Part shown: in pieces, positions 3,257 through 64,000 of the stretch
Layout of the letters: every line of letters starts with the position of its first letter
How positions within the stretch are numbered: position 1 is the first letter of the stretch
Origin: a virus
Lineage: Duplodnaviria; Caudoviricetes
Direction: 5' to 3' (one strand)
Virus record (IMG/VR): IMGVR_UViG_3300005546_000003
Location: 9,617 to 73,616 of that record
DNA length: 64,000 nt
Program-made: the position numbers and the translations under genes
Notes under the pieces: model-generated
The model's input: only the letters and a program-made list of their open reading frames with translations
The model's database searches: none
What the model was told of the DNA's origin: nothing

Positions 3257-4225
3257 TTAGTCCCCTACTCGCTGTGCAATAAGTTTACAATACTCTGGAT
3301 TGAGCTCTATTAAGATGGAGTTTCGTTCTAGTTGCTTAGCTACCACCCCAACCGTCCCAGAACCTGCAAAAGGGTCTAATACAGAATCCCCTTGATTGCT
3401 TCCAGCTAGAATGCAGGGCGCTACTAAATTCTCAGGAAATGTGGCAAAATGAGCCCCCTTGTATGGTTTGGTTGGAATTGTCCAAACAGTTCTAGCATTT
3501 CTACCCCGCTCCTCAAATCCACCCACTACTAATCTGTCCTTATTGTCCCCCCGGGCTTTGACGCTATGATATGGTAAATTGGCCTTATAAGGAGCTTTCT
3601 GCTCATATACACGGCCAGCCCGTAAACGCTGCCGGTATCGTGCATCGCTAGATGGAGAATATGGCTCAAATTGTTGATTAAATAGGTACTTTGGGCTTTT
3701 TGTTAGCAAAAACACGTATTCATGAGCCATTGTAAACCGATCTCTTACTGAACTTGGCATCACATTAGGTTTGTGCCAAATAATGTCATTCCGCAGGTAC
3801 CATCCATCAGCTTGCAGAGCTAGGGCTACCCGCCAGGGAATGCCAACTAAGTCTTTTGGTTTCAGCGTGTTGTGATGTGGAATCCTGATGGCTTGTCGGT
3901 TAACCCCAAAATTAGCTCCTTTATTGGTATTTTGCTTCTGACTCAATTCATAAGTGCCGCCAGAACCTTTTCTGGAGCCAAAGTAGCTATCCCCAAGATT
4001 TAGCCACACAGTGCCAGAATCAGTAAGTTTCTCACCAATAGCCGCAAACAGCTCTACCAAACGCTCAACATATACTTCTGGTGTTTCCTCGTGCCCAATC
4101 TGACCGTTCACGCCATAATCCCGCAGTCCCCAATATGGAGGGCTGGTTATACAGCACTGAACCGATAAGTTGGGAATTTTGGAGACTTCTGCTATTGCAT
4201 CCCCGCAAATAATAGTGGTTGTCAT
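3257..4225 (-). CDS. site-specific DNA methyltransferase, beta class (N4-C/N6-A)
   Basis: ITSPPYWGLRDY near N-terminus, DPFAGSGT near C-terminus; start moved to MTTTIICGD (ATG 4225), downstream of promoter. Confidence 0.9.
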   Translation of the reverse strand: MTTTIICGDAIAEVSKIPNLSVQCCITSPPYWGLRDYGVNGQIGHEETPEVYVERLVELFAAIGEKLTDSGTVWLNLGDSYFGSRKGSGGTYELSQKQNTNKGANFGVNRQAIRIPHHNTLKPKDLVGIPWRVALALQADGWYLRNDIIWHKPNVMPSSVRDRFTMAHEYVFLLTKSPKYLFNQQFEPYSPSSDARYRQRLRAGRVYEQKAPYKANLPYHSVKARGDNKDRLVVGGFEERGRNARTVWTIPTKPYKGAHFATFPENLVAPCILAGSNQGDSVLDPFAGSGTVGVVAKQLERNSILIELNPEYCKLIAQRVGD

Positions 4226-5293: not shown

Positions 5294-5464
5294 TTTGCGG
5301 ATTTTTGCCCGAAATTTTGGACTTTCTTGCGATTTTTGGTCCAAATTTTCGGATTTTGGCCGTCGATTTTCGCCACGCAATCGCCGTGCCAATGCGGTTT
5401 TTGTTGGCGTTTTTGCGATTTTTGGCGCTGTGGCACGGCCTTTGCCCTTGTTCGCCCCGCTTTT
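5294..5464. repeat. helically phased T-tract array (predicted bent DNA)
   Basis: T3-5 runs at ~5295,5304,5316,5324,5335,5347,5355,5368,5400,5412,5421,5442,5452,5462 in GC-rich background. Confidence 0.65.
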
Positions 5465-7484: not shown

Positions 7485-7753
7485 TGCCATGCTATGATGA
7501 TAGAGACTCGCCATCAAATGTGCGGGCAGAATCTCAAGCACAAATTGACAAGCTAACCAGATTGCTCTGTGAGGCTTGCCTGACCATTACCAACGTAGAG
7601 AATAAAGCAATTTGCAGCGTTGAGCTGCGAGAGTGGTGGGCCAATCATCAGAAAATCGACAAGAAGCGCAAGCAAGAGGAACGGCAAGCTAAGAGAGGCA
7701 TAATAGTTATGGCTGAACTAACTAAAGCAGAAAGAGAGGCTCTAGGCTTGTAG
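7484..7753 (+). CDS. phage hypothetical protein
   Basis: MPCYD...LTRLLCEAC...EWWANHQKID; TAATG overlap. Confidence 0.65.
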   Translation: MPCYDDRDSPSNVRAESQAQIDKLTRLLCEACLTITNVENKAICSVELREWWANHQKIDKKRKQEERQAKRGIIVMAELTKAEREALGL

Positions 7754-8165
7754 CTAGTTTTCTCTGTTCTCAAACCCCTAACTCTACAAGAGCTATGACA
7801 ATTTAGTCAGGCAAGGCATAAGATGGAATCGCCTTGGCTCAGGGTAGGGGTTTGAGATGAGGGAAAAGCTAAGCTATAGCAGGGTTAGGGAAGGTTGGCT
7901 AATTGGGCAACTGGTAATCTTGCTTAGGGATTAAGCCAGAGAACAATCTTAGTCCTAGTGCAATGCTAGGGAGTGAGAATGAAGCTCAGCTTAATTGCTG
8001 GCCCTGGGTGGCTGCGGTAGGAGTGAGCGGGGGTTTTGAGTAGCAAATACAGACCAGCCCTAGCTCTAGGTTTGAGCTTGCACCTAATACAGCTGCCAGC
8101 CTAATCAAGCTCCTGCTGTTCGGGCTGCCTGGGGCTTGTATATTTGAGGGAGGAGCGGAGGAAAA

Positions 8166-8837
8166 ATGATAAACACCAACGTGAAGAGAGAAGTTGACCT
8201 AGACTCACACTCCAAAGTCGTGCTTTACAAAGATGGGAGCATAATTCTTACAGTCCATGGTGAGTCAATATCAATGTCTGAGCCAGCAACTGAAGCCCTA
8301 AAGCAGCTCTTAACTCCCCCAGCCGAAGGTAAGCTCAAGGAGACCATTAAGAATCTCCTGCGCCTCACACGTCAGTACAGCCCACGGGCGGGTCAACTCA
8401 CTGTGGACGGCTACCTTGACGCCTACGCTAATAGTATAGCTGCTATGATTCCAGCTAAGCTCCAATGGACTCGGGAGAAGCCGAAGGTTGATGGGTGGTA
8501 CTGGCGCATGGGAGAGGCCAAGAACCCGATGTTCCCAGTTGTTGTTAGCCACGGCTATGCTAAAGCTTGGGGAGCTCCCGGAATGTCACAGGTGTATTCA
8601 GCATCAGCAAGTGACAAAGGTTGGAGTCTCATAGCTGATTACAAATCTGGTTGGTGGGCAGGCCCAATAGCCGAGCCGGAGATGCCAGAGGAGCCCAAGA
8701 GCGTCGAGACCATTGTAACCCAGCGTTCATGGTGCTGTCCGAAGTGTTATCGTAGCTGTTTTGTAAATGTTGCGGATGGCTTTGAGATTCACAACAAGTG
8801 TCTAACTTGCGGTCAGGAGGTCAAGCTGGAATGCTGA
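8166..8837 (+). CDS. hypothetical protein, C-terminal zinc ribbon
   Basis: SD GGAGG; LQWTREKPKVDGWYW; CPKC...CLTC. Confidence 0.7.
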   Translation: MINTNVKREVDLDSHSKVVLYKDGSIILTVHGESISMSEPATEALKQLLTPPAEGKLKETIKNLLRLTRQYSPRAGQLTVDGYLDAYANSIAAMIPAKLQWTREKPKVDGWYWRMGEAKNPMFPVVVSHGYAKAWGAPGMSQVYSASASDKGWSLIADYKSGWWAGPIAEPEMPEEPKSVETIVTQRSWCCPKCYRSCFVNVADGFEIHNKCLTCGQEVKLEC

Positions 8838-8990
8838 GCCAACAACAAATTGATGCTAGAGCCCAAACGCGCCGTGGGCTCAGGGAGTTCTTCAAGCGCC
8901 GAGGGGCATTGACTCCCCTGCTAGTGCGCCAGGTCGTGCATGTAGTAGCTGGCCGCGACGGCAGGCCGGTTGATGGAAAGGAAGCTCTAA

Positions 8991-9218
8991 GTGGCAAGCA
9001 TGAAATTCACCGTTAAGGTTGGGTTTGTCCGTAGGGCGGCTTTTATAAGTGAGCTGGAAAGGGTTTGCTTTAAGTATGACATAGTTCTTGAAGTGAGAAA
9101 GGCTCCAGGAATTTTGTCAACCGATTATTATGTACGTGTCGAGCACCCAGATTGGGAAATTCTAGAGGCTCTCAAGAGAGCCCTTCAGGAGGTCTCAGAG
9201 AGGTCTCAGATTAGATAA
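8991..9218 (+). CDS. hypothetical protein
   Basis: 75 aa, packed between neighbours. Confidence 0.55.
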   Translation: MASMKFTVKVGFVRRAAFISELERVCFKYDIVLEVRKAPGILSTDYYVRVEHPDWEILEALKRALQEVSERSQIR

Positions 9219-9397
9219 TGCCCCAAAAACGAAAACGCAAAAGGATAGTTCGCATAACTACTGAGCTAAACCGCATAGGAACTAAGCGAGCTGGTAGTGG
9301 CTGGGCAGCTAAGCAGGCTGGCAAGAGGCATAACCAAGGCAAGAAGGTCTCAATGAGGACTATTCGCAAGAGAATGAAAAAGAAAGGTGGAAGCTGA
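9218..9397 (+). CDS. highly basic 59-aa peptide (not in ORF track)
   Basis: TAATG overlap; MPQKRKRKRIVRITTELNRIGTKRAGSGWAAKQAGKRHNQGKKVSMRTIRKRMKKKGGS, 22 K/R and 1 acidic residue. Confidence 0.55.
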   Translation: MPQKRKRKRIVRITTELNRIGTKRAGSGWAAKQAGKRHNQGKKVSMRTIRKRMKKKGGS

Positions 9398-9502
9398 TGA
9401 GCCAACAAGTGCTTGACAATCTCAGGGCCCGAATGCTCTTCACTATTGGCGCCCAGCTGGGGTTGTGACTAGGACTTTTCAACGGGTAGCGGGGAGGAAG
9501 GT

Positions 9503-9880
9503 ATGGGCAGCTTAATCGGTTGGACTACTTATGTTGTTGGAATAATAATCATCATGACCTTTGCTGTTCATCAGTATCAAGAGGATGGGGATGAGGAAAG
9601 GATTGCATTTGGAGTATTCTGTGGCATATTTTGGCCTCTCATCCTAGTTTTCTGTGTATTGGTAGGGGCCGCAGCTGTGCCATTCTATTTCCTGCCCAAA
9701 GGACTATTAGCACTTCCGGGGGCCATTAGAGGAATCAGGAAATGGCACCAGGATAGGAATAGGAAAAGGGGCAAAAATCTTGTATTAAAGAAGCCAGCTG
9801 AACCCAGCAAAGGAGATTGGACTAGTGGGGAATCTGTGAGCGCGGTGGAGCCTGGGAGGTGGATGCAAACTTCAGATTAG
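9503..9880 (+). CDS. membrane protein (2-3 TM)
   Basis: SD GGAGG; hydrophobic segments, GIFWPL motif. Confidence 0.65.
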   Translation: MGSLIGWTTYVVGIIIIMTFAVHQYQEDGDEERIAFGVFCGIFWPLILVFCVLVGAAAVPFYFLPKGLLALPGAIRGIRKWHQDRNRKRGKNLVLKKPAEPSKGDWTSGESVSAVEPGRWMQTSD

Positions 9881-9918
9881 CCCTCAGCCCCGGCGGGTTG
9901 AGAGTTATTCTAATGTTT

Positions 9919-9985
9919 GGCCAGTAGTGAAGAGCTGGGATACTTCAATTGGATGAAAAACTCCTAGCTTGTTTGTTCTCTGGCC
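9919..9985 (+). ncRNA. Y-RNA-like ncRNA (Y1, minimal)
   Basis: GGCCAG/CTGGCC stem; TAGTGAAG-stem-GATACTTC...GTTT-GTTCT; upstream of Ro60. Confidence 0.75.
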
Positions 9986-9990
9986 TTTGA

Positions 9991-10072
9991 TTACGTTGGG
10001 CGGCTAGTGGGAGCGCCGTCTAACCAGAGGAGGCACGGGGCTCTACCCACTCACCTACCGACCTCCTCGTAT
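9991..10072 (+). ncRNA. two-hairpin element with loop-loop complementarity
   Basis: TTGGGCGGC/GCCGTCTAA and GAGGAGG/CCTCCTC hairpins; loop AGTGGG complementary to CCCACT. Confidence 0.4.
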
Positions 10073-10079
10073 GAATTAA

Positions 10080-10236
10080 AGCAGAATGGCGTAGCATAGG
10101 GATACTTCGACTCTAATCGGGAGGTCGCAGGTTTAAGTCCTGCCTCCAGTCTTACGGCTGGAGTAGCTCAGTTGATAGAGCGCCTGACTGAAAGCCTTGT
10201 GCGATTGAGCCCCATTGGGCTCTAGTTCCTTCTGCT
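10080..10236 (+). ncRNA. YrlA-like Y RNA with circularly permuted tRNA-like domain (Y2)
   Basis: AGCAGAA/TTCTGCT stem, GATACTTC, T-arm GCAGG-TTTAAGT-CCTGC, acceptor CTCCAGTC/GGCTGGAG closed by TTAC loop, D-arm GCTC-AGTTGATA-GAGC, CCTGA/TCGGG stem. Confidence 0.85.
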
Positions 10237-10245
10237 AGTTTGAGA

Positions 10246-10315
10246 CTTGAAAATGTTGCGTGGGTTGAGGGACTTCCCCCACTCTAGCTCCTCCGAGAGC
10301 TGAAACGTTTTCAAG
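10246..10315 (+). ncRNA. structured RNA-like hairpin (not Y consensus)
   Basis: 12-bp closing stem CTTGAAAATGTT/AACGTTTTCAAG. Confidence 0.35.
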
Positions 10316-10327
10316 GCTGAGAATCTT

Positions 10328-10438
10328 GGTAGCATAGCGTAGTTGGGGGATACTTCTTCTGCAAAAATGGCCTCTAAAGCCATTAGAAGACCGAGAGCAA
10401 GTCTCTCAGTCATGCTCCTAGCGATTGTTCTTGCTGCC
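10328..10438 (+). ncRNA. Y-RNA-like ncRNA (Y3)
   Basis: GGTAGCA/TGCTGCC stem; TAGCGTAG-stem-GATACTTC...GATT-GTTCT. Confidence 0.75.
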
Positions 10439-10445
10439 TTTTAAG

Positions 10446-10563
10446 TTTGCGCGGTCATTGAGGGCGGTAGCCTTTGAGCACACGGTCTCTGACTAGCGAG
10501 CAGGCGTAATAGCTTGATCTAGCAGTATGACGAGAGACGCTGAGCGACCTGAAGCCGCGCAAA
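10446..10563 (+). ncRNA. multi-stem structured RNA-like element (not Y consensus)
   Basis: TTTGCGCGG/CCGCGCAAA closing stem; inner GTCTC/GAGAC and CTAG/CTAG pairings. Confidence 0.4.
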
Positions 10564-10568
10564 TGATT

Positions 10569-10642
10569 TTGAGCAATGGTGAAGATTGGGATTCCTTCTA
10601 CTGTTAATAGACAATGAGCCCAGTCGTTTGTTCCTTGCTCAA
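10569..10642 (+). ncRNA. Y-RNA-like ncRNA (Y4)
   Basis: TTGAGCAA/TTGCTCAA stem; TGGTGAAG-stem-GATTCCTTC...GTTT-GTTCC; immediately before Ro60. Confidence 0.75.
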
Positions 10643-10669
10643 CTAACTTGATGAAAGAAGGCTAAAACT

Positions 10670-12031
10670 GTGGCGAAAACTAACTCTAGCTCCAAGCGAG
10701 CACCAATATTTACGTATGAAGGCGCAAGAGCGGCTCATGCAAACCCAGTCCAGCAGCTGCGCAGGCTGACTATGGCGCATATGCTTTGGGAGGACCAGTT
10801 TTATGTGGATGGCAAGAGCTCAGCTGAGCTGCTTGCGCAGGCTGTCAAGGATTGTAAACCAGCTGATGTGCTGGAGATAGCCATTGAAGCGCGAGAGAAA
10901 CAACACTTGCGTCACGTTCCGTTATTTCTAGTGCGCGAGGTTGCGCGGGATAGCTCTAAGCTGAAGGACAAAGGGCTGGTAGCTGAAACGCTCGGGCGGG
11001 TAATTCAGCGAGCCGACGAACTGGCTGAGTTTCTGTCTATCTATTGGAAAGACAAGCGGCAGCCATTGAGTGCGCAGGTGAAGAAAGGGCTAGCTATGGC
11101 TTTCACTAAGTTTGGTGCCTATCAGCTGGCTAAGTACAACCGAGACAATGCGGTTAAGTTGCGAGATGTGCTGTTTCTGTGTCATGCCAAGCCAAGAGAT
11201 AAGGAACAAGCTGGAGTGTGGGCCAAGCTGGTTGAAGGAACCCTTGAGCCCCCGGATACCTGGGAAGTTGCGCTGAGCGCTATATCCAAAGACAACAAGG
11301 CTTCCCGACGAGAAGTATGGACTCGACTACTGGCGGGGGAGAAGCTTGGAGGGCTAGCCTTCCTACGCAATCTCCGTAATATGCGTGAGGATGAAATGTC
11401 TGATGCTTATATTGCGGGAGCTTTCGAGCAAGTTAACTTCAACCGAGTCCTGCCATTTAGGTTTGTAGCAGCTGCTATACACAACCCCACGTTGGAGCCA
11501 GCCATTGAAGTAGCTATGCTCAGGGCATGTGAGAGCTTGCCCCGGCTGGCTGGTAAGACCGCGTTGGTGGTTGATAACTCGGGCTCGATGTATCATGCTA
11601 AAATCAGTGCCAAGAGCGAGCTTGAGCGCATTGACGCGGCGTGTGCGCTGGCTATTATGGCTCGGGAGGTTTGCGAGGATATTGTGGTGCTGAGCTATAG
11701 CACCAAGCCAAGCATAGTTCCAGCTCGTCGGGGATTCGCGCTGCGGGATGCTATTAAAGCTGCTTGCACTCCAAATAGTACCAACACACAGGACGCCATT
11801 TTTGCGGCGGCTGAGCAAGGATACGATAGGATCATCGTCATCACAGATGAGCAAAGCCACCAAAGGATTAGCAACCCCCTGGTAGCTACGAGTGCTTACA
11901 TTATTAATGTGGCAGCCTATCGCAATGGCATTGGCTATGGCCAGGGATTCGTCACGGTGGATGGCTGGAGTGAGAATACTCTAGCATTCATTGGTCAGCT
12001 TGAGGAGGGAGAGAGTGGCAGCGGCGAATGA
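10670..12031 (+). CDS. Ro60/TROVE-domain RNA-binding protein with C-terminal vWA domain
   Basis: TYEG...QLRR...LWEDQFY, LRHVPL, RADEL, YQLAKY, CHAKP, PDTWEVALS, LRNLRN, VLPFRF; vWA VDNSGSM, VITDEQ. Confidence 0.92.
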   Translation: MAKTNSSSKRAPIFTYEGARAAHANPVQQLRRLTMAHMLWEDQFYVDGKSSAELLAQAVKDCKPADVLEIAIEAREKQHLRHVPLFLVREVARDSSKLKDKGLVAETLGRVIQRADELAEFLSIYWKDKRQPLSAQVKKGLAMAFTKFGAYQLAKYNRDNAVKLRDVLFLCHAKPRDKEQAGVWAKLVEGTLEPPDTWEVALSAISKDNKASRREVWTRLLAGEKLGGLAFLRNLRNMREDEMSDAYIAGAFEQVNFNRVLPFRFVAAAIHNPTLEPAIEVAMLRACESLPRLAGKTALVVDNSGSMYHAKISAKSELERIDAACALAIMAREVCEDIVVLSYSTKPSIVPARRGFALRDAIKAACTPNSTNTQDAIFAAAEQGYDRIIVITDEQSHQRISNPLVATSAYIINVAAYRNGIGYGQGFVTVDGWSENTLAFIGQLEEGESGSGE

Positions 12032-12476
12032 GAAGAAAGCAGCAGGTAAGTCTAAGCTAGGGTGCAAATGGGCTGATGTTCTAGTGTTTGCGCCTTACTG
12101 TAGTTGCGATGAGCGTTGTGCTAATCCAGATTGTGATGAGGGTGATGAAGGGGGCGGCTTTACTCGGCTTATGTGCTGTGGGATTCTGGAGTACAGTGGG
12201 CTGAGTTCAATCACTAGCCACTCTAGAGCCGTAGCTCTGCGGGTAGCAGCTAGGCTGGTTGGAAATTCAGGTTATGTTATCTGCACTAGTACTAGGGATG
12301 GCACTGTTACTAAACATCTGATTAGTGCTGGGTTCCAGGTCTTGACTCCAAGCTTCAAGAACCCGCGATCGGGCTCTATTATAACTCTCTGGGGAGCCCT
12401 AACATTGCACCCTGATGAGGTTGATATAATTGGTGGGCCAGATGACGAAGACGATGATGATGATGAGGATTGGTGA
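12015..12476 (+). CDS. Cys-rich hypothetical protein with acidic tail
   Basis: SD GAGGAGG before GTG 12015; CSC..C...C, CCGILE, FKNPRSGSIITLW. Confidence 0.65.
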   Translation: MAAANEKKAAGKSKLGCKWADVLVFAPYCSCDERCANPDCDEGDEGGGFTRLMCCGILEYSGLSSITSHSRAVALRVAARLVGNSGYVICTSTRDGTVTKHLISAGFQVLTPSFKNPRSGSIITLWGALTLHPDEVDIIGGPDDEDDDDDEDW

Positions 12477-12480
12477 TTAA

Positions 12481-12858
12481 ATGAGCAGCACAAAAACAGC
12501 AACGGATGATCCAAAGCTAATCCGCAAAGCGTGGTTACGGGCTCTAACTAACGACCTCAAGGTTCTCAAAGGCTGGGACAGGAAGAAATACAAACGCTTG
12601 GCTAAGAGCATTGAGGCTTTTCTTGGTGGTCATATGAATAACGATGGCCAGGTTCTTGCGCTTATTGCTGGAACCATTCAGCTGCCCCAGGATACCAGAA
12701 CTATCCACAACATCAGGGCATCCATCTTGGCTATGTGGCGAGATTTGGATATGGTTACCAGCGAAGAGATTCGGAAACTAGAGAACGATAGTACGGAGAC
12801 CCAAAATGACAGCGATGATGATGACCAAAACCCATTCGCTCTCGCACCAGAGCTCTGA
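12481..12858 (+). CDS. hypothetical protein
   Basis: 125 aa, packed. Confidence 0.6.
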   Translation: MSSTKTATDDPKLIRKAWLRALTNDLKVLKGWDRKKYKRLAKSIEAFLGGHMNNDGQVLALIAGTIQLPQDTRTIHNIRASILAMWRDLDMVTSEEIRKLENDSTETQNDSDDDDQNPFALAPEL

Positions 12859-14923: not shown

Positions 14924-16084
14924 ATGAAATACATGTTCTCCGACAACTGGGGGGAAGTCGATCCCTTTGCATCCATGAAACCAAAAGCTAAGGAATACTC
15001 GCCGAGTGAGGCCGAGTATCGCAGACTAACAAGGTTTGCCACTACTGGCACCGAGAGCGGAGTGCTCAGGAGCCCGATTGATGTTAGACTAGAGCTGCTA
15101 CCAACGGTTGCTAAAGTAGCCAAGCAAAATATGGATTGGCTCTGGCGGAATTTAATGGGGCGGTGCTCTAATTGGAAGGCCAAATCGTTGCTACTGGCTT
15201 TGAAGCTCAGTCAAAAAGAATCTAGGAGTGAGCGCACCAAGAGCGCCCGACAGGTGGCTGATCAGGTGCGCAACACTAGCCAAATGGAGCAACTGATAGC
15301 TCAAACGCAAGAGCTTGGTGGAAGCTTGGGCAACGTTAGGGGAATGCTACAGGAATGGCTTAACCGGGCTAAAGTGTGGGAGCTATTGAGGAGCAAGGAA
15401 CGGGTGGCAGAATGGATAGCCCTAGCTCATCCAAAGCCTAGGGATAAAGAGCGAGAAGAGGTTTTCGGGTTTATTCTTGGCCGCGAGGGAGCGCAGGTTA
15501 CTACTCCGGTTCTGGTAGTTTATCAGAAAGTCGAGAGCCCAGACACTCCATTTAGGCTCCGGATTAGCCTAGCTAAGCAATATGGAGTGCCACTAGGACT
15601 GCTTGGAGATGGATTGGCCAAAAGCCCTAAACTTTGGGCTCCAGCTGAAGAGCTGGGGAGAAGGCATTATAGTGTTCTCTCAATAGCTGATGCTAGAAGG
15701 CTGGAAAGTTTAGGAGTCGATGTGGCTCCTCTGGTGAGCGGATTTATACACCAAGTTGCTGGCTGGGACAAGCTCCAAGTTGGCTGGGGGCTGATCAGGT
15801 ACACCTTTTCTAGGCTCTTGCTGATGGGGAATAAAGAGCATCCACTATGGGAGACCCTAGCTAAATGGGTTGACCTAGTAGCCAGCGAGCGCAAGGGAAA
15901 GCTTGGGGCTAGTAGCCTTGGAATTGAGCTTGGGGGAGCTAGTAAGTTCCCGAGCACGATGCCTTGGGTTAGATATGAGCCAACTGCTGAAATGCCGGAG
16001 CAACAAAACGTGCTGGTGGTTGAAGGGGAGTTTACTGAGGAGATTTGCAAGGCTATTTTTGCTTGGCTGGGGGGGAATGGGTAA
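14924..16084 (+). CDS. hypothetical protein, possible divergent TROVE-like helical protein
   Basis: EWIALAHPKPRDKEREEVFGFI resembles Ro60 DVLFLCHAKPRDKEQAGVWAKL; no vWA motif. Confidence 0.5.
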   Translation: MKYMFSDNWGEVDPFASMKPKAKEYSPSEAEYRRLTRFATTGTESGVLRSPIDVRLELLPTVAKVAKQNMDWLWRNLMGRCSNWKAKSLLLALKLSQKESRSERTKSARQVADQVRNTSQMEQLIAQTQELGGSLGNVRGMLQEWLNRAKVWELLRSKERVAEWIALAHPKPRDKEREEVFGFILGREGAQVTTPVLVVYQKVESPDTPFRLRISLAKQYGVPLGLLGDGLAKSPKLWAPAEELGRRHYSVLSIADARRLESLGVDVAPLVSGFIHQVAGWDKLQVGWGLIRYTFSRLLLMGNKEHPLWETLAKWVDLVASERKGKLGASSLGIELGGASKFPSTMPWVRYEPTAEMPEQQNVLVVEGEFTEEICKAIFAWLGGNG

Positions 16085-29678: not shown

Positions 29679-30287
29679 ATGAGTAATATGGGAACTAAAT
29701 CAGCCGCAGATATTAATAATCTGCAACTAGCTGACGAGGGCTTTGACCCTACAGCTAACCAGTATGCGGCTCCGAGGCCGCCGACTCCAGGGATCTACCT
29801 AGCCAGCTTGGACTTCCGTGAGGAAGACCCCGAAAAGCGGTTCCGAATTATGCCATATAACAGCGAGAAGTACCCAGCCAAGGCTGGTACGGCTTATCTC
29901 AAGACCGAGCTTCTGGGCACGATTACCGAGGTTGGTAATGAGTTTGAAGGTCGGAAGGTCAGGGATCGGTTCATGAGCACCGGCATCTTCAATAAGCCAA
30001 CCTCTGGTGTGGCTAGTCTGTTGCTCACGCTTGGTGAGACTCTCCAAGGTAACGAAGGCCATCAGGAGCTAGCTAATATGCTCAGCAATATCTTGGCCGG
30101 AGAGCCCACGGTGCGAATCCGCACTGACTGGGAGTGGCAGGGGAGCAAAGAGGGTGGCTACCAGACCATCAAGGGATACAAGAACTTCCCTGAGGTTAAT
30201 GGAACGGTTAACCACATCGTCGAGGACGAGACCACAGGCGAGAAGTTTGCAGCCTATGGGATCATTACGGGCTACTTGATTAACTAA
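29679..30287 (+). CDS. putative single-stranded DNA-binding protein (OB-fold type)
   Basis: PTPGIYLA, YLKTE, GRKVRD; canonical position after Sak4. Confidence 0.6.
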   Translation: MSNMGTKSAADINNLQLADEGFDPTANQYAAPRPPTPGIYLASLDFREEDPEKRFRIMPYNSEKYPAKAGTAYLKTELLGTITEVGNEFEGRKVRDRFMSTGIFNKPTSGVASLLLTLGETLQGNEGHQELANMLSNILAGEPTVRIRTDWEWQGSKEGGYQTIKGYKNFPEVNGTVNHIVEDETTGEKFAAYGIITGYLIN

Positions 30288-30288
30288 T

Positions 30289-30428
30289 GGTAGCATTGTG
30301 CCCCCATCCTTCTACAACGGACAAGGCTTTGGCACGGAATCGGCGGTCGCTCTGCCGCAAGGCAACGATCTAGAGGGATAAACCCGTGGTGGGTAGCGAG
30401 TGGTTGACCAAGAAGGATGGGGGCTACC
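30289..30428 (+). ncRNA. structured RNA-like element A
   Basis: Perfect 14-bp stem GCCCCCATCCTTCT/AGAAGGATGGGGGC enclosing sub-hairpins including GCC-GCAA-GGC. Confidence 0.55.
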
Positions 30429-30553
30429 TTTCTAGCAGGGTCGGGCCTGCTAGTCTGAGCTAGCCGAGGGCTTAACGAGACTTGGCCTAGAGCTCAGCTT
30501 AGAACTGAGAGCCGGATAGCTTCGCAGCCAGTCCGGCTTTTGGTCCTAAGAGC

Positions 30554-30648
30554 TAGAGAGTAAGCAGTAGTTCAATTGGTTAGAACGCTAGCCACTGAAG
30601 GTTTGACCTACTAGCATATCCGGTTCAAGTCCGGCTGCTTACTCTCTA
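30554..30648 (+). ncRNA. tRNA-like element with expanded anticodon arm, no CCA
   Basis: 14-bp acceptor-like stem; D-arm GTTC-AATTGGTTA-GAAC; T-loop TTCAAGT on CCGG/CCGG; 19-nt anticodon-position loop. Confidence 0.6.
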
Positions 30649-30657
30649 CCTAGAGCT

Positions 30658-30730
30658 CGCCCCATTCCGCCTCCTAAGGACAAGAGGGATCAGGGGAGTG
30701 GGGCGTCCGGCATGAGGCCTGATCCCTCTT
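30658..30730 (+). ncRNA. H-type pseudoknot-like element
   Basis: Stem CGCCCCATTCC/GGAGTGGGGCG interleaved with AAGAGGGATCAGG/CCTGATCCCTCTT. Confidence 0.55.
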
Positions 30731-30732
30731 AG

Positions 30733-30841
30733 AATAGAGAGCCAAGACTGGAATCCTGCTAATAACTGCTCAGTGGGAAGTAAGTCCGCAAGTGAGTAAG
30801 CAGCACCTGAGCGGACGAAACTCCTTTACTTGCTCTCTATT
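30733..30841 (+). ncRNA. structured RNA-like element E
   Basis: AATAGAGAGC/GCTCTCTATT; competing CTGCTCAG/CTGAGCGG and GTCCGC/GCGGAC pairings. Confidence 0.5.
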
Positions 30842-30847
30842 TTAAGC

Positions 30848-31001
30848 TCGTGGCATCGAATAAGTAGTGACGCTATATAAAATGGTTCGCCAAGGGGCAA
30901 TCCCACGCGGCAACGAAAGTTGCGGAATGGTGGAGCGATAGCGAATGGCGCTCTGGCCTTGGAGGAGCAGGGTGGAGAAGCGGGACTCCCTGCTGCCACG
31001 A
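30848..31001 (+). ncRNA. multi-junction structured RNA-like element F
   Basis: TCGTGGCA/TGCCACGA; CCAAGG/CCTTGG; GCAA and GAAA tetraloops; CGCTAT/ATAGCG pseudoknot. Confidence 0.55.
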
Positions 31002-31007
31002 CAAAGT

Positions 31008-31104
31008 TGAGGTTGAAGGTTCGATAGGTAAGTAACTGCCTATTGGGGGGAGTTCTGGATTCTCTTGCGAGAACTTCTTTTTTTTTTAGGTTCCTTCAAC
31101 CTCA
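31008..31104 (+). terminator. terminator-like hairpin with T10 tract nested in a 12-bp outer stem
   Basis: GGAGTTCT/AGAACTTC then T10 (31078-31087); outer TGAGGTTGAAGG/CCTTCAACCTCA. Confidence 0.45.
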
Positions 31105-31107
31105 TTA

Positions 31108-31238
31108 TGACCCCCTTACAGGACGACTGCACTATCTATGGAGCGGCTGGGGTAAGAGGTACCTCGGTCCAGCCACTACTCCTAGCTAGGTACGCCGCTC
31201 GGCACTAGCGCAGAGAGGGACAGGTCCTGAGGGGGTCG
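31108..31238 (+). ncRNA. structured RNA-like element H / leader of 31249 gene
   Basis: TGACCCCCT/AGGGGGTCG; GAGCGG/CCGCTC; GGCTGG/CCAGCC; GTACCT/AGGTAC. Confidence 0.45.
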
Positions 31239-31248
31239 TCAAAAGGTT

Positions 31249-31569
31249 ATGAGTGAAACTTTATATACAACTAATGAGCTGATCCAGGTTCTTGAGTCTT
31301 CTTACATGAGGGATGTAATTGGGGGAAGTCCTTATATGAGAGGATATTCGGCTGGCATGACTGATCTTGCTAGAACTCTGGCATTCAGGCTCAAGAACAA
31401 TACAATTCGTGGAGTAGAGATTCCAAAGGAGACTCACCACCACACCCTATGTTGCTCAGGCTGGCCAGAGGAGATGGATTGTGAAGGAGTCTCAGAGAAC
31501 TGTTCTTGTTTGACTGGGAAGGCTTCAACCTCGGGGCTATGTGCTAGATGTAGATTGGAGAAACTATGA
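31249..31569 (+). CDS. hypothetical protein
   Basis: 106 aa; Cys-rich C-terminus. Confidence 0.55.
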   Translation: MSETLYTTNELIQVLESSYMRDVIGGSPYMRGYSAGMTDLARTLAFRLKNNTIRGVEIPKETHHHTLCCSGWPEEMDCEGVSENCSCLTGKASTSGLCARCRLEKL

Positions 31570-31829
31570 TAAAAGTAAGTCAACTACCAGATAACCCAAA
31601 AACTGGGGTAATGCTCTTATGTCCAGCAGGGCTAGAGGAATATTCGGCCAACCCAGATGACTACTGGCATCTTCCTCCAGATTACATAATTCGGTGCGAG
31701 CACCACGGTGTTGAGCTGATATTAGTCCACAAGCAGACAACATGGGAAACAATTTCGCCAGCGGAGGCAAATCATGTCGAAGACCCTAAATCGCACACAA
31801 GTGCGGACCGAGATAGCAAGACTGATTGA
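31566..31829 (+). CDS. hypothetical protein
   Basis: SD GGAG, ATGA overlap. Confidence 0.55.
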   Translation: MIKVSQLPDNPKTGVMLLCPAGLEEYSANPDDYWHLPPDYIIRCEHHGVELILVHKQTTWETISPAEANHVEDPKSHTSADRDSKTD

Positions 31830-40508: not shown

Positions 40509-40939
40509 TCTCTCTCCCTAGCTCGACGCTTGATTAGTCCAGGAAGCGCCTTTGGTGGCTTGCCTGCAAAGATCCAGCGCCCGAATTGCTCGGCAGCTCC
40601 GGCGTAGTCGCGGCGATTTAGTTTGCGAAGCAAGGTTGATTTGGCAAGGTTGCCTGAGCCGAGGTTAAATATAAAGGAAACAAGAGCCGCGAACTGGTTG
40701 TCCGAAATTGGTACACTCACCAGTTTCTCTACAGCTCGCTCAGCGCTAGCTAGATCATCCCGCAAGAGCTGCTCAGCTCTAGCTTGGGTGATTTTGTCTC
40801 CTATCTTGAGTTTGTCTTTTGCTAGAACCAGATGCCCGTAGCCCACAGTGGGAAGACCCACGGGATCGCGGTAAACCACGAGCCGTAGGCCTTCTGATTG
40901 CTGGATTAGCTCTAGTCCTGCTTGATTTATCTTACGCAC
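40490..40939 (-). CDS. endolysin, phage lysozyme (GH24)
   Basis: LIQQSEGLRL..YRDPVGLPTVGYGH, QFAALVSFIFNLG, GLIKRR..E. Confidence 0.92.
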   Translation of the reverse strand: MRKINQAGLELIQQSEGLRLVVYRDPVGLPTVGYGHLVLAKDKLKIGDKITQARAEQLLRDDLASAERAVEKLVSVPISDNQFAALVSFIFNLGSGNLAKSTLLRKLNRRDYAGAAEQFGRWIFAGKPPKALPGLIKRRARERELFLKS

Positions 40940-40945
40940 AACGGG

Positions 40946-40974
40946 ATTCTACCTTGTTGGCTGGGATTTGTCAA
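40946..40974 (-). promoter_or_regulatory. sigma70-type promoter, leaderless for endolysin
   Basis: TTGACA-17-TAGAAT; GTG begins 7 nt downstream. Confidence 0.75.
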
Positions 40975-40983
40975 GCCTTAGGG

Positions 40984-41190
40984 CTAGGCGCTTGGGGTAT
41001 TGGCTACCACTGCATCGCTGAGCTTAGTGCTTTCAGCCTTGAGGGAATCTACTACTGCCTGGAGGGCAACAGGATCTACACCTGCTTGGGCAATGCGATC
41101 TGCAATGCCGTTAATGAGCACAATAGCACTCTCCTGGACCGTAACGCTTGCTTCTACAGCAGCTTTCAGGTCGTCGATTGACTGGGACAT
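40984..41190 (-). CDS. small helical protein in lysis region
   Basis: DDLKAAV...DPVALQAVVDSL...AVVANTP. Confidence 0.7.
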   Translation of the reverse strand: MSQSIDDLKAAVEASVTVQESAIVLINGIADRIAQAGVDPVALQAVVDSLKAESTKLSDAVVANTPSA

Positions 41191-41193
41191 ATT

Positions 41194-41436
41194 TTAGTTT
41201 TCCTTTTCTTGGGGTTGGTTAGAGTCAACGGCGGCATCGAGGGCCTCCGTAGCTTGGTTGAGTTTGGCAACTTGAGCTTCGATTGCGTCTTTGTCTTGAC
41301 CGGCTATGGCTTGGGCTATAATAGCCAGCCACTTGCCGGTACTATCGGCATGGCGGTTAACCGCGCCGATAAGGGCATTGAGCTTGAAATCGAGAGCTGC
41401 AAATTGCCGCTCACTGAATTTGGTGCATTCCCTCAT
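41194..41436 (-). CDS. small helical protein in lysis region
   Basis: C-terminus resembles the 40984 ORF. Confidence 0.65.
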   Translation of the reverse strand: MRECTKFSERQFAALDFKLNALIGAVNRHADSTGKWLAIIAQAIAGQDKDAIEAQVAKLNQATEALDAAVDSNQPQEKEN

Positions 41437-61996: not shown

Positions 61997-62269
61997 TTAG
62001 TCTCCACCAAGTTGGAAAATGTCGTCAAGTGTGCTATCGAGCGACCCAGGATTCGCTGGGGTACTGTCATAGAACACGCTTGATATCTTATCCGAGCTCT
62101 CCGGTTTGGAAACCGATGGAACACGATTGCGTCCGCGCTCGCCGCCACCGGAATTTTCATTCGGCTTGCCCCAAACGTCTCTCTGGGTTCCATCCAAGGG
62201 CTTCTCTGGAGCACTTGAGCTGCCTCCGGGTCCTTTAATTTCAAATGTCATCGTACTGTCGAGTGCCAT
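61997..62269 (-). CDS. hypothetical protein
   Basis: 90 aa, SD AAGGA. Confidence 0.55.
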   Translation of the reverse strand: MALDSTMTFEIKGPGGSSSAPEKPLDGTQRDVWGKPNENSGGGERGRNRVPSVSKPESSDKISSVFYDSTPANPGSLDSTLDDIFQLGGD

Positions 62270-62284
62270 CGTTTTGTTTTTCCT

Positions 62285-62521
62285 TTACATATTCTGGCCT
62301 TTAGCCAGTTTGGTTATTGGTTGTCCCTTTTTATCTAGGGGGACAACGAAGTAGCGAAATTTCATCCCCTGCATAGCTGGGGGTGAGTGGTCAAATATCT
62401 TTGCTATCCCGTGCTTGAGTTCCATGCGGGCGATGACTTCTTCCAAAGTAAGGCCTGCGGTGAGATAGTCTTTGAGTTCCTGGAGGGTTGCAATTCGGTC
62501 CACAAGGTCCTTTACATCCAA
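62285..62521 (-). CDS. hypothetical protein
   Basis: 78 aa, overlaps upstream stop. Confidence 0.55.
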   Translation of the reverse strand: MDVKDLVDRIATLQELKDYLTAGLTLEEVIARMELKHGIAKIFDHSPPAMQGMKFRYFVVPLDKKGQPITKLAKGQNM

Positions 62522-63459
62522 TCAACTACGTGATTCTGAGCGTAGTTAGCATCAACTGGAGTCATGAACCCGCTTCGGCTTTCTGCAAAATGCATGGTCT
62601 GCATATAAGCGTCTTCGTCTTCACGGGCCGTTTTGACGTAAAGCTCATTGAACCTGCGATCTGCTTCAGCTGCTAAGTAGCGCCAATCACTTCCTGCCAG
62701 CTTTGGGTCTCCACCTTTTGCGCTTTCAGCCCACTGATAAGCATGATACTTAGCTCGCTCAAGCACCAGCTGCTCCGGTATAACTGGAGGAAACTCAGAA
62801 CTTGCTACCATGTCGCTTCCCCGGCCCTGATATAAAACCTGGTAGCTCCTCGCCACACTTGGAGTCGGCCAGAGCTCAAACATTGGTATGTTATCGGTAT
62901 CAGTCTTGTAACTCACCACATAAAGAGGATCTCCCTCAGTGTTGCGCTGGGGGTCGATTCGATTTATTTCCTCCTGCGTGTAGTGGAGCCGGATATGATA
63001 ATTAGTAACTAAATCTCGAACCGAAATGAATCGGGTAAAATCATCACTTGGGGGTCTAAAGTAAACACTCAGAACCTGATAGCTCGACCCGCTAACTGTA
63101 GCTTCCTGATAAGGCTCCTCTAGCACCAGAGTAGCTCCATCCCAGGTGCTGATATTGTAAATCCTCTCACCAGCGCTGAGCCTAAACTGTCTGCGCCCCA
63201 GTGGGGGATTAGTCCCAGCTGCATTGAGCGCTGCTATAGCAGTAGCATCTGGCGTGATCGTGGTGCTAAACTGTGTTGCGCTAACCGTCCCCGCTGTAAT
63301 CTTAGCCGGTACAATCAAAAACCCTTCCTTTAACAAAAAGCTCCAGCTTTTGCGCTGCCGGAGCTCCCGCCAAGCTCGATTAACAAATCTCTGAGCTAGA
63401 AAGGGGGAGAGTGAAGGAACATGAGCTAATAGCTCATTCCAGGTGTCCTGAAAAGCCAT
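62512..63459 (-). CDS. head-tail adaptor / tubular protein
   Basis: LAQRFVNRAWREL...WSFL; ELWPTP. Confidence 0.65.
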   Translation of the reverse strand: MAFQDTWNELLAHVPSLSPFLAQRFVNRAWRELRQRKSWSFLLKEGFLIVPAKITAGTVSATQFSTTITPDATAIAALNAAGTNPPLGRRQFRLSAGERIYNISTWDGATLVLEEPYQEATVSGSSYQVLSVYFRPPSDDFTRFISVRDLVTNYHIRLHYTQEEINRIDPQRNTEGDPLYVVSYKTDTDNIPMFELWPTPSVARSYQVLYQGRGSDMVASSEFPPVIPEQLVLERAKYHAYQWAESAKGGDPKLAGSDWRYLAAEADRRFNELYVKTAREDEDAYMQTMHFAESRSGFMTPVDANYAQNHVVDWM

Positions 63460-63573
63460 TTAACTTATTGCTCCTTCACTTTGGGGATTTTGGGGAGCCC
63501 CGCGGAATCTGGGTATCCAGCGCGAAGATCCCGCTTCACGCCTTCAAACCACGAGGCTCCCCAAACTTGAGAG

Positions 63574-64000
63574 TTAGATTCCCTCGAATCTAACCCGAAC
63601 TGTGACAGTTGAGAGATTAACTGCATTTGCTACCTGCACCAGAGCACCAGCAGCTACAGCTGTTCCAGTGAAAGCCGGAGCTGAGTTGGTACCCGCCGGG
63701 GTTCCAGCGGTATCGGAACTGGTAGTCAAATCTTGACCTCCAGTGCTTTCCAGTACACCTGCATTATTAGTCACCGCATCACCAGCCGTGCCCGCAGTAA
63801 CAGGAACTGTGTGACTATGAGCAGCCAAGGCTGAGCCGGTAAAAGTTGGAGCTGCTACAGTGCCAGCTGGAGTAAAACCTGCACTACGAAAGACCATGAG
63901 CTTTTTGTTCACGGTATCATAATGCACAGCATAACCCCCAGCTGCCGAGTTGCCCCCAAGCTTCACCGCTCCATTGATCTGGCTCCAACCCAGCGCCGAT
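63574..64000 (-). CDS. virion structural protein, 5'-partial
   Basis: Frame stays open to 64000; repeated TPAGT..AP.FTG. Confidence 0.6.
   Translation of the reverse strand, partial: SALGWSQINGAVKLGGNSAAGGYAVHYDTVNKKLMVFRSAGFTPAGTVAAPTFTGSALAAHSHTVPVTAGTAGDAVTNNAGVLESTGGQDLTTSSDTAGTPAGTNSAPAFTGTAVAAGALVQVANAVNLSTVTVRVRFEGI

Follow-up and report, generated by a model that had tools for sequence, protein, structure and literature searches.

A candidate cassette of fast-changing structured RNAs next to an SSB-like gene in a Ro60-encoding phage

To our knowledge, the noncoding RNAs (ncRNAs) of phages have scarcely been charted apart from transfer RNAs (tRNAs). The tRNA cluster of phage T4 also contains what we take to be co-transcribed stable RNAs that are not tRNAs (species 1 and 2), and as far as we know their purpose is still an open question. 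Y RNAs are found in bacteria and phages, among them YrlA (Rfam RF02553; Chen et al. 2014, PMC4201824) and Yrl1/2 of Thermus phage phiLo (PMC12135203), and the large ornate RNAs GOLLD and ROOL are carried by phages and prophages (10.1101/2024.12.08.627333; PMC5737381). Here we analyzed a 64,000-nucleotide (nt) stretch of phage DNA, hereafter the window, which comprises bases 9617-73616 of the 73.6-kb IMG/VR genome IMGVR_UViG_3300005546_000003, a contig with direct terminal repeats of 110 base pairs (bp). Our subject is a 950-nt array of stem-closed structured domains, D1 to D10, which is free of open reading frames (ORFs) and lies between the gene of a 202-amino-acid (aa) protein resembling single-stranded DNA-binding proteins (SSB-like) and the gene of a 106-aa protein (Table 1). 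We propose, with about even confidence, that the array is a fast-turnover polycistronic cassette of small structured plus-strand RNAs akin to the tRNA and stable-RNA islands of phages.

The array resembles T4-type tRNA islands in being an ORF-free, presumably polycistronic stretch of compact stem-closed RNAs within a phage operon, and the equivalent stretch of one relative (contig L013) mixes three tRNA genes with non-tRNA domains. It differs from such islands in having no canonical tRNA, with one putative mimic (D5) accompanied by nine domains that are unrelated to it, larger and more elaborate, and in that its modules are replaced between close relatives. With Y RNAs it shares a modular build, long end-to-end stems with variable interiors, tRNA mimicry, several elements per locus and a genome that encodes Ro60. 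In contrast to Y RNAs, the array has neither a CGAA-type nor the local Ro60 handle, does not match YrlA and is not adjacent to the Ro60 gene, and D5, which extends its acceptor stem, has no match to the YrlA model. GOLLD and ROOL likewise span hundreds of nt, are ornate, multi-stemmed and phage-borne and often lie near tRNAs, but the array has no model match or conserved core and its architecture varies between relatives. The components have forerunners in phage tRNA islands that contain stable RNAs, in arrays of Y RNAs and in tRNA mimics. What is new is a heterogeneous array of ten elaborate domains with no common handle, a fixed position combined with rapid module replacement, and a module exchanged with another phage's Ro60 leader.

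An earlier, sequence-only reading of the window had described this interval as devoid of credible ORFs and tiled by at least nine stem-closed elements, and both descriptions stood. No ORF of at least 60 aa occurs on the plus strand between 30288 and 31248, and the 32 stop-to-stop frames of at least 20 aa in the array gave no peptide match in the arrays of relatives beyond short nucleotide patches (all E > 0.01). The fold of the array reaches -396 kcal/mol, with a z-score of -5.3 on the plus strand. When it was folded with a 200-nt span limit and exterior-loop domains were counted, ten stem-closed domains were obtained, separated by linkers of 0-6 nt. These linkers are as short as had been claimed and only partly A/U-rich, their bases being mostly T or C. 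Taken individually, six of the ten domains have z-scores of -2.8 or lower, and the value for D6 (-1.2) is an underestimate because the folding program cannot score its H-type pseudoknot topology. In a structure scan of the whole window, based on GC-regressed minimum free energy (MFE) in 150-nt segments, the array was the top-ranked block of about 950 nt on the plus strand. Perfect Watson-Crick inverted repeats (at least 10 bp, span up to 220) are also concentrated here: 6 of the window's 21 fall in the 961 nt of the array, a density of 6.2 per kb compared with 0.24 per kb elsewhere (26-fold). Hairpins capped by GNRA loops, read from the sequence as GCAA in D1 and GAAA in D8, and words shared between domains were confirmed: GAGTAAGCAG occurs at 30558-30567 and 30794-30803, CCTAGAGCTC at 30486 and 30649, and the closing words TAGAGAG and CTCTCTA of D5 are the same in D7, the interior GAGTAAGCAG of which is complementary to the 3' strand of D5.

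Known families do not account for the array. A search of 29900-31600 against Rfam yielded no family beyond tRNA at E <= 0.1, Rfam returned no GOLLD, ROOL, OLE or other large-RNA match at E <= 10, and neither ARAGORN nor Rfam detected a transfer-messenger RNA in the array. The sequence-only reading had likewise been unable to match the array to transfer-messenger RNA or ribozymes, and D5 is the one domain that Rfam recognized. Each module is single-copy in the 73.6-kb genome and no copy turned up when IMG/VR and the GTDB genomes were scanned for motifs, so a miniature inverted-repeat transposable element or other dispersed repeat was rejected.

Relatives of the locus were collected through metagenome homologues of the 202-aa SSB-like protein, which gave nine distinct usable contigs (L002, L003/L004, L005/L006, L007, L008, L013, L014, L015/L016 and L017). 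The sequencing runs from which L002, L006, L008 and L013 come are SRR27674915, SRR7968838, DRR638535 and SRR30224746. IMG/VR scans with both flanking proteins and two RNA motifs produced no relatives, GTDB genomes gave nothing by protein alignment or by a gapped D10 pattern, INPHARED phages held nothing similar (polymerase matches there were all below 30% identity), and a JGI metagenome scan found no new relative beyond a contig already in the set. Three matches to TGGAGAAGCGGGACTCC in the motif scans lay inside coding DNA and were dismissed as chance. Complete ORF-free gaps of 530-830 nt were found in four distinct relatives, in every case right after the SSB-like gene; their folds had z-scores of -5.7, -9.9, -2.9 and -4.5, and each gap splits into stem-closed domains. 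The flanking genes share 65-70% nucleotide identity among relatives whereas the arrays align in patches only, and this patchy alignment between well-aligned genes therefore indicates module replacement. The position and architecture of the array are conserved and its modules mostly are not. In the array of L002, the 13-mer CCCTTTAATTTTA occurs twice (3504-3516 and 4147-4159), after the GC-rich stems that end the first and last domains, and these copies may be terminator or processing signals that bracket that array.

The few modules that are shared carry compensatory changes. L003 and L005 have a hairpin with an identical 18-nt loop and stems that differ by two double and two single changes in 14 pairs. 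The D8 hairpin GGAG(AAGCGGGA)CUCC has a 19-nt core identical to that of L005 between different flanking stems. The outer 8+6-bp helix of D10 and its flanking unpaired motifs, CGAC and GCAGAGAGGRC, are kept in L003/L004 and L005 around a variable interior, and compensatory changes affect 4 of the 24 consensus pairs among the window, L003/L004 and L005. With two or three sequences in each alignment, support from covariation in these shared modules is real but thin.

The equivalent stretch in L013, a 71.7-kb relative (region 8190-12529), is a tRNA-containing island. This island, 1006 nt long and free of ORFs, lies 0.9 kb downstream, and in it tRNA-Gly, tRNA-Pro and tRNA-Asn stand among non-tRNA closed domains. 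In L014, a different gap contains a normal tRNA-His and, next to it, an unusual tRNA-Phe-like gene of 81 nt. The tRNAs among closed domains in L013 and the tRNA genes of L014 indicate that these arrays and phage tRNA islands are one type of locus. The tRNA-Phe(GAA) called by ARAGORN at 5575-5655 of L014 has its anticodon at position 40 and is not listed by Rfam at E <= 0.01; it may be another aberrant tRNA-like element of this phage group. ARAGORN detected no standard tRNA gene in the phage of the window.

The tRNA-like fold claimed from the sequence was located in D5, where Rfam tRNA RF00005 matches 30561-30642 with 39.9 bits (gathering score 29). The D arm, the T arm and the elbow residues of D5 are canonical, U8, A14, G18, G19, A21 and the T-loop UUCAAGU being readable in the Rfam alignment, and the module can be aligned to genuine tRNAs from related phages. 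A 7-bp extension into the flanks brings its acceptor helix to 14 perfect bp (30554-30567/30635-30648), and its anticodon stem carries a loop of 19 nt instead of 7 nt, able to form an extra 4-bp helix capped by UUG. Standard ARAGORN found no tRNA gene at D5; with introns allowed it reported a poor tRNA-Gln(UUG) that contains mismatches and a 9-nt insert in a non-canonical position. An archaeal-type intron is unlikely because the peptide deformylase encoded by this phage implies a bacterial host. From these features we read D5 as a probable tRNA-derived mimic turned into a stem-closed module, not a decoding tRNA.

Where the sequence-only reading had spoken of pseudoknots, one candidate was found, the H-type fold of D6 with perfect helices of 10 and 12-13 bp. 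It was read from the sequence, its S2 being a listed perfect inverted repeat and its S1 being present in the MFE structure. An HDV-like or theta ribozyme was considered for D6 and rejected, since the 5' strand of S2 abuts the 3' strand of S1 and leaves no space for P3/L3, and D6 has no Rfam ribozyme match. The second hairpin of D9 is followed by a run of ten T (T10) at about 31046-31089, which is terminator-like on the plus strand and was not listed by a consensus terminator scan. The D10 motif has no second copy within the window and so is not a repeated signal, its covariance model found no additional members in any locus, and the genes downstream of D10 in the different phages are non-homologous. 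Two candidate roles for D10 were rejected. A leader peptide MTPLQ(D/G)DC is readable in the window and L003, and L005 has AAG in place of its ATG; a switch that sequesters the Shine-Dalgarno sequence is contradicted by the non-homologous downstream genes, two of three of which have a Shine-Dalgarno sequence of their own.

Several observations bear on the strand of the putative RNAs. The 1x1 mismatches embedded in helices, counted over the arrays, comprise 11 G-U and 1 A-C, a bias that points to RNA on the plus strand. The plus strand is also the stabler one in 8 of the 10 window domains, and the flanking genes and the T10 run are all on the plus strand.

Table 1. Positions of the array domains, neighboring genes and related features in the window, and lengths of the ORF-free stretches directly 3' of the SSB-like gene in relatives
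Feature	Position or length	Strand	Basis or remark
D1, multi-branch, with an internal GCAA-capped hairpin, closed by a perfect 14-bp helix (30300-30313/30411-30424)	30289..30428	+	fold, z -1.75
D2, perfect 8-bp hairpin	30432..30453	+	fold, z -3.7
D3, nested hairpin of 43 nt, CCTAGAGCTC at its 3' end and again after D5	30455..30497	+	z -2.2
D4, long hairpin with four G-U pairs	30499..30549	+	z -5.2
D5, tRNA-shaped module	30550..30658	+	Rfam RF00005, z -4.4
D6, candidate H-type pseudoknot, S1 30659-30668/30695-30704 (10 bp), S2 30682-30694/30718-30730 (12-13 bp)	30659..30731	+	
D7, multi-branch, closing helix of about 15 bp	30728..30846	+	z -3.5
D8, multi-branch, with a GAAA-capped hairpin	30848..31001	+	z -1.5
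D9, perfect 12-bp closing helix around two hairpins	31008..31104	+	z -4.4
D10, handle with variable insert, final module	31107..31239	+	z -2.8
Upstream flanking gene, 202 aa, probable OB-fold SSB	29679..30287	+	anchor for locating homologous arrays
Downstream flanking gene, 106 aa, no family	31249..31569	+	Pfam/PHROG search of window proteins
Module of the Ro60 leader without the Y handle; GCGGTCATTGAGGGC ... TGAGCGACCTGA serves as its handle and the interior is variable	10446..10565	+	homologous to L005 array module
L002 ORF-free stretch	828 nt		
L003/L004 ORF-free stretch	531 nt		
L005 ORF-free stretch	653 nt		
L008 ORF-free stretch	566 nt		
L007 ORF-free stretch	>347 nt		contig ends there

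The phage encodes Ro60 (10670-12031), and the array had been suspected of being built like the Ro60 leader and of supplying extra Ro60 cargo. The likeness holds for the general architecture only. A handle, TRGYGWAG ... YGNTTGTTCY, is present in three full copies in the Ro60 leader of this phage and in three in that of L013, and no copy occurs in the target array or in any replication-arm array. The published Ro60-binding motif of Y RNAs, GNCGAAN0-1G (PMC4201824), is likewise absent from the target and from every replication-arm array. The YrlA model (RF02553) matches the Ro60 leader at 10095-10204 (34 bits) and has no match in 29900-31600 at E <= 10. Because the handle is absent from the array and the YrlA model matches the leader and not the target, the proposal of extra Ro60 cargo found no direct support. 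Two links of the array locus to Ro60 can be traced by sequence comparison, apparently the only ones. A second member of the leader module at 10446-10565 lies in the L005 replication-arm array (1927-2098, 172 nt); the two have both handles in common, enclose inserts of 125 nt (L005) and 76 nt (leader), and have closing helices that differ by three compensatory pairs. In L013, the SSB-like gene comes immediately after the TROVE/Ro60 gene, which is 64% identical to that of this phage; the leader of this TROVE/Ro60 gene contains tRNA-Cys and then three Y-like elements that use the handle found in the leader of our phage, and the tRNA-containing array begins about 1.6 kb downstream of the TROVE gene. 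Close Ro60 homologues were found on the L013 contig and not on the L002, L014 and L015 contigs among the 120 proteins listed.

Our favored interpretation, a polycistronic cassette of small RNAs, would give the site just 3' of the SSB-like gene the character of a hot spot occupied by about ten independently folding stem-closed ncRNAs, which we consider roughly an even call. For the transcription, processing, stability and partners of these RNAs we infer the following course. The cassette would be transcribed by read-through out of the recombination/replication operon, with transcription ending mostly at the D9 hairpin and T10. Host RNA-processing nucleases like those responsible for the maturation of tRNA operons would then cleave the precursor within its short linkers, and the long closing helices would shield the modules from exonucleases, so that they persist as stable small RNAs. 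By way of a handle or a loop, each module might engage a protein and serve as its decoy or adapter: D5 would mimic the body of a tRNA, and D10 and the GGTCATTGAGGGC family would resemble Y RNAs in combining a conserved handle and a variable insert.

Several points weigh against this interpretation. No promoter was found for the array, and it contains one terminator-like site only, so separate small RNAs depend on an assumed processing. The Ro60 handle is absent from its sequence and a partner protein is only hypothetical. The covariation alignments hold two or three sequences each, and no homologue was detected for D1-D4, D6, D7 and D9, so individual selection on these domains is unsupported. 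In the window alone, the ratio of G-U to A-C mismatches is 0 to 1 and uninformative. The fold z-score on the minus strand (-7.0) is no weaker than that on the plus strand; a strand call from fold z-scores was rejected because they do not discriminate between strands, and the call therefore rests on the relatives, the gene orientation and the T-run.

The alternatives, in descending order of weight, are a purely cis-acting element, cargo for Ro60/TROVE proteins, a decaying tRNA island, one large RNA and a DNA-level element. If the array acts purely in cis, D1-D9 would be the structured 3' tail of the SSB operon, blocking 3'-to-5' exonucleases with transcription terminating at T10, D10 would be the 5' leader of the next unit, and there would be no trans-acting RNAs. 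The D9 hairpin with T10, the CCCTTTAATTTTA copies after GC-rich stems at both ends of the L002 array, the invariable place of D10 as the final module just 5' of the next start codon and the co-orientation of the array with both flanking genes all fit such an element. We nevertheless think it unlikely: ten elaborate domains with a tRNA-shaped body and a pseudoknot exceed the needs of stabilization or termination, the equivalent array of L013 holds real tRNA genes, D10 precedes non-homologous genes of which two of three bring their own Shine-Dalgarno sequence, and fast module swapping would be odd for a housekeeping cis-element. That the modules are extra Y-RNA-like ligands for Ro60, or for a putative and diverged TROVE paralogue encoded at 14924-16084, is suggested by the Ro60 gene itself and its Y-like leader with a YrlA-type match, the leader module homologous to a module of the L005 array, the TROVE gene that abuts the SSB-like gene in L013, and the Y-like layout in which the two ends of a module pair into a stem. 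The absence from the target of both Ro60 motifs and of a YrlA match, together with a distance of 18 kb from the Ro60 gene, which lies upstream, makes this quite improbable in our view.

Functionless decay would make the array a set of remnants of tRNA genes and spacers, with D5 as a tRNA pseudogene. The tRNA genes in comparable ORF-free stretches of L013 and L014, the tRNA-derived D5 with its disrupted anticodon arm and the lack of a standard tRNA gene in this phage are compatible with that history. Yet D5 alone scores as a tRNA even at E <= 10, perfect closing helices of 12-14 bp, including the 7-bp acceptor extension of D5, would be lost in neutral decay, the shared modules have compensatory changes and fold z-scores are strong in every relative tested; we give decay little credence. 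The sequence-only reading had left a polycistronic cassette and one large ncRNA side by side, and the comparative data favor the cassette. A single multidomain RNA of the GOLLD/ROOL/OLE kind, folding as one unit and perhaps multimerizing, would agree with the size of about 800-950 nt and a phage context near tRNA-like elements, in which the array resembles GOLLD and ROOL (10.1101/2024.12.08.627333), and with the complementarity between the D5 3' strand and the D7 interior and the shared closing words. It fits poorly because module order and content are both unconserved between relatives, whereas RNAs of that kind keep a conserved core, and given the lack of any large-RNA match in Rfam we hold it to be very improbable. 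A role at the DNA level, as a replication origin with a structured primer transcript resembling ColE1 RNA II, as a recombination hot spot or as a stack of miniature transposable elements with terminal inverted repeats that look like stems, has the least to recommend it and seems to us barely plausible in any of these versions. The array does sit in a replication/recombination module, with the exonuclease, Sak4-like and SSB-like genes on one side of it and a family A polymerase on the other, and is dense in inverted repeats. Against such a role, the excess of G-U over A-C indicates that selection acts on a single RNA strand, iterons are lacking and the T10 run is the sole AT-rich tract, no module recurs in the genome or occurs in IMG/VR or the GTDB genomes, and the interiors are structured as well as the termini.

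The genes around the array belong to a plus-strand arm of about 10.6 to 37.7 kb that holds the Ro60/TROVE gene, a phiEco32-type set of amidoligase, ATP-grasp and GATase, a PD-(D/E)XK exonuclease and a Sak4-like annealing protein, a UDG-PolA fusion and a peptide deformylase. The 202-aa protein upstream of the array has no Pfam or PHROG match. Its AlphaFold2 model (pLDDT 95) gave only weak Foldseek matches, to SSB, RPA, PrgE and PRD1 P12 (best E 0.017), and the model thus suggests that it is probably an SSB of the OB-fold type. Its family is widespread and unannotated (320 representatives) and is probably a new phage SSB family. The tetramer CTAG is avoided by many bacteria and phages; in the whole window it occurs at 6.6 per kb, compared with 3.9 per kb expected at equal base use. 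CTAG enrichment was rejected as a peculiarity of the array since the entire genome is CTAG-rich. Other GC-adjusted folding outliers lie in ORF-poor parts of the window (7751-8150, 5301-5450, 40851-41400 and 62251-62400 on the plus strand; 63351-63600 on the minus strand), and this phage may have further structured RNAs there.

A broader reading, which we hold with considerable doubt, is that the spot beside the SSB-like gene and the Ro60 leader together form an RNA accessory island in which independent genes for structured RNAs come and go and are swapped, both from phage to phage and from one locus to the other. Each RNA would then have its own protein-binding handle, as in the D10 and GGTCATTGAGGGC families, or mimic a tRNA, and the island would be an RNA counterpart of protein anti-defence islands, its decoys or adapters diverting RNA-processing or tRNA-targeting defence enzymes of the host. 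If the cassette interpretation is true, a lineage of phages of about 70 kb spends 0.5-1 kb on fast-changing elaborate small RNAs at one site, and some of these RNAs would use the logic of Y RNAs, a conserved handle with a variable insert, with other handles. It would add several new RNA families, imply RNA-binding partners yet to be named, and provide a tractable case for why phages carry tRNA mimics and stable RNAs.

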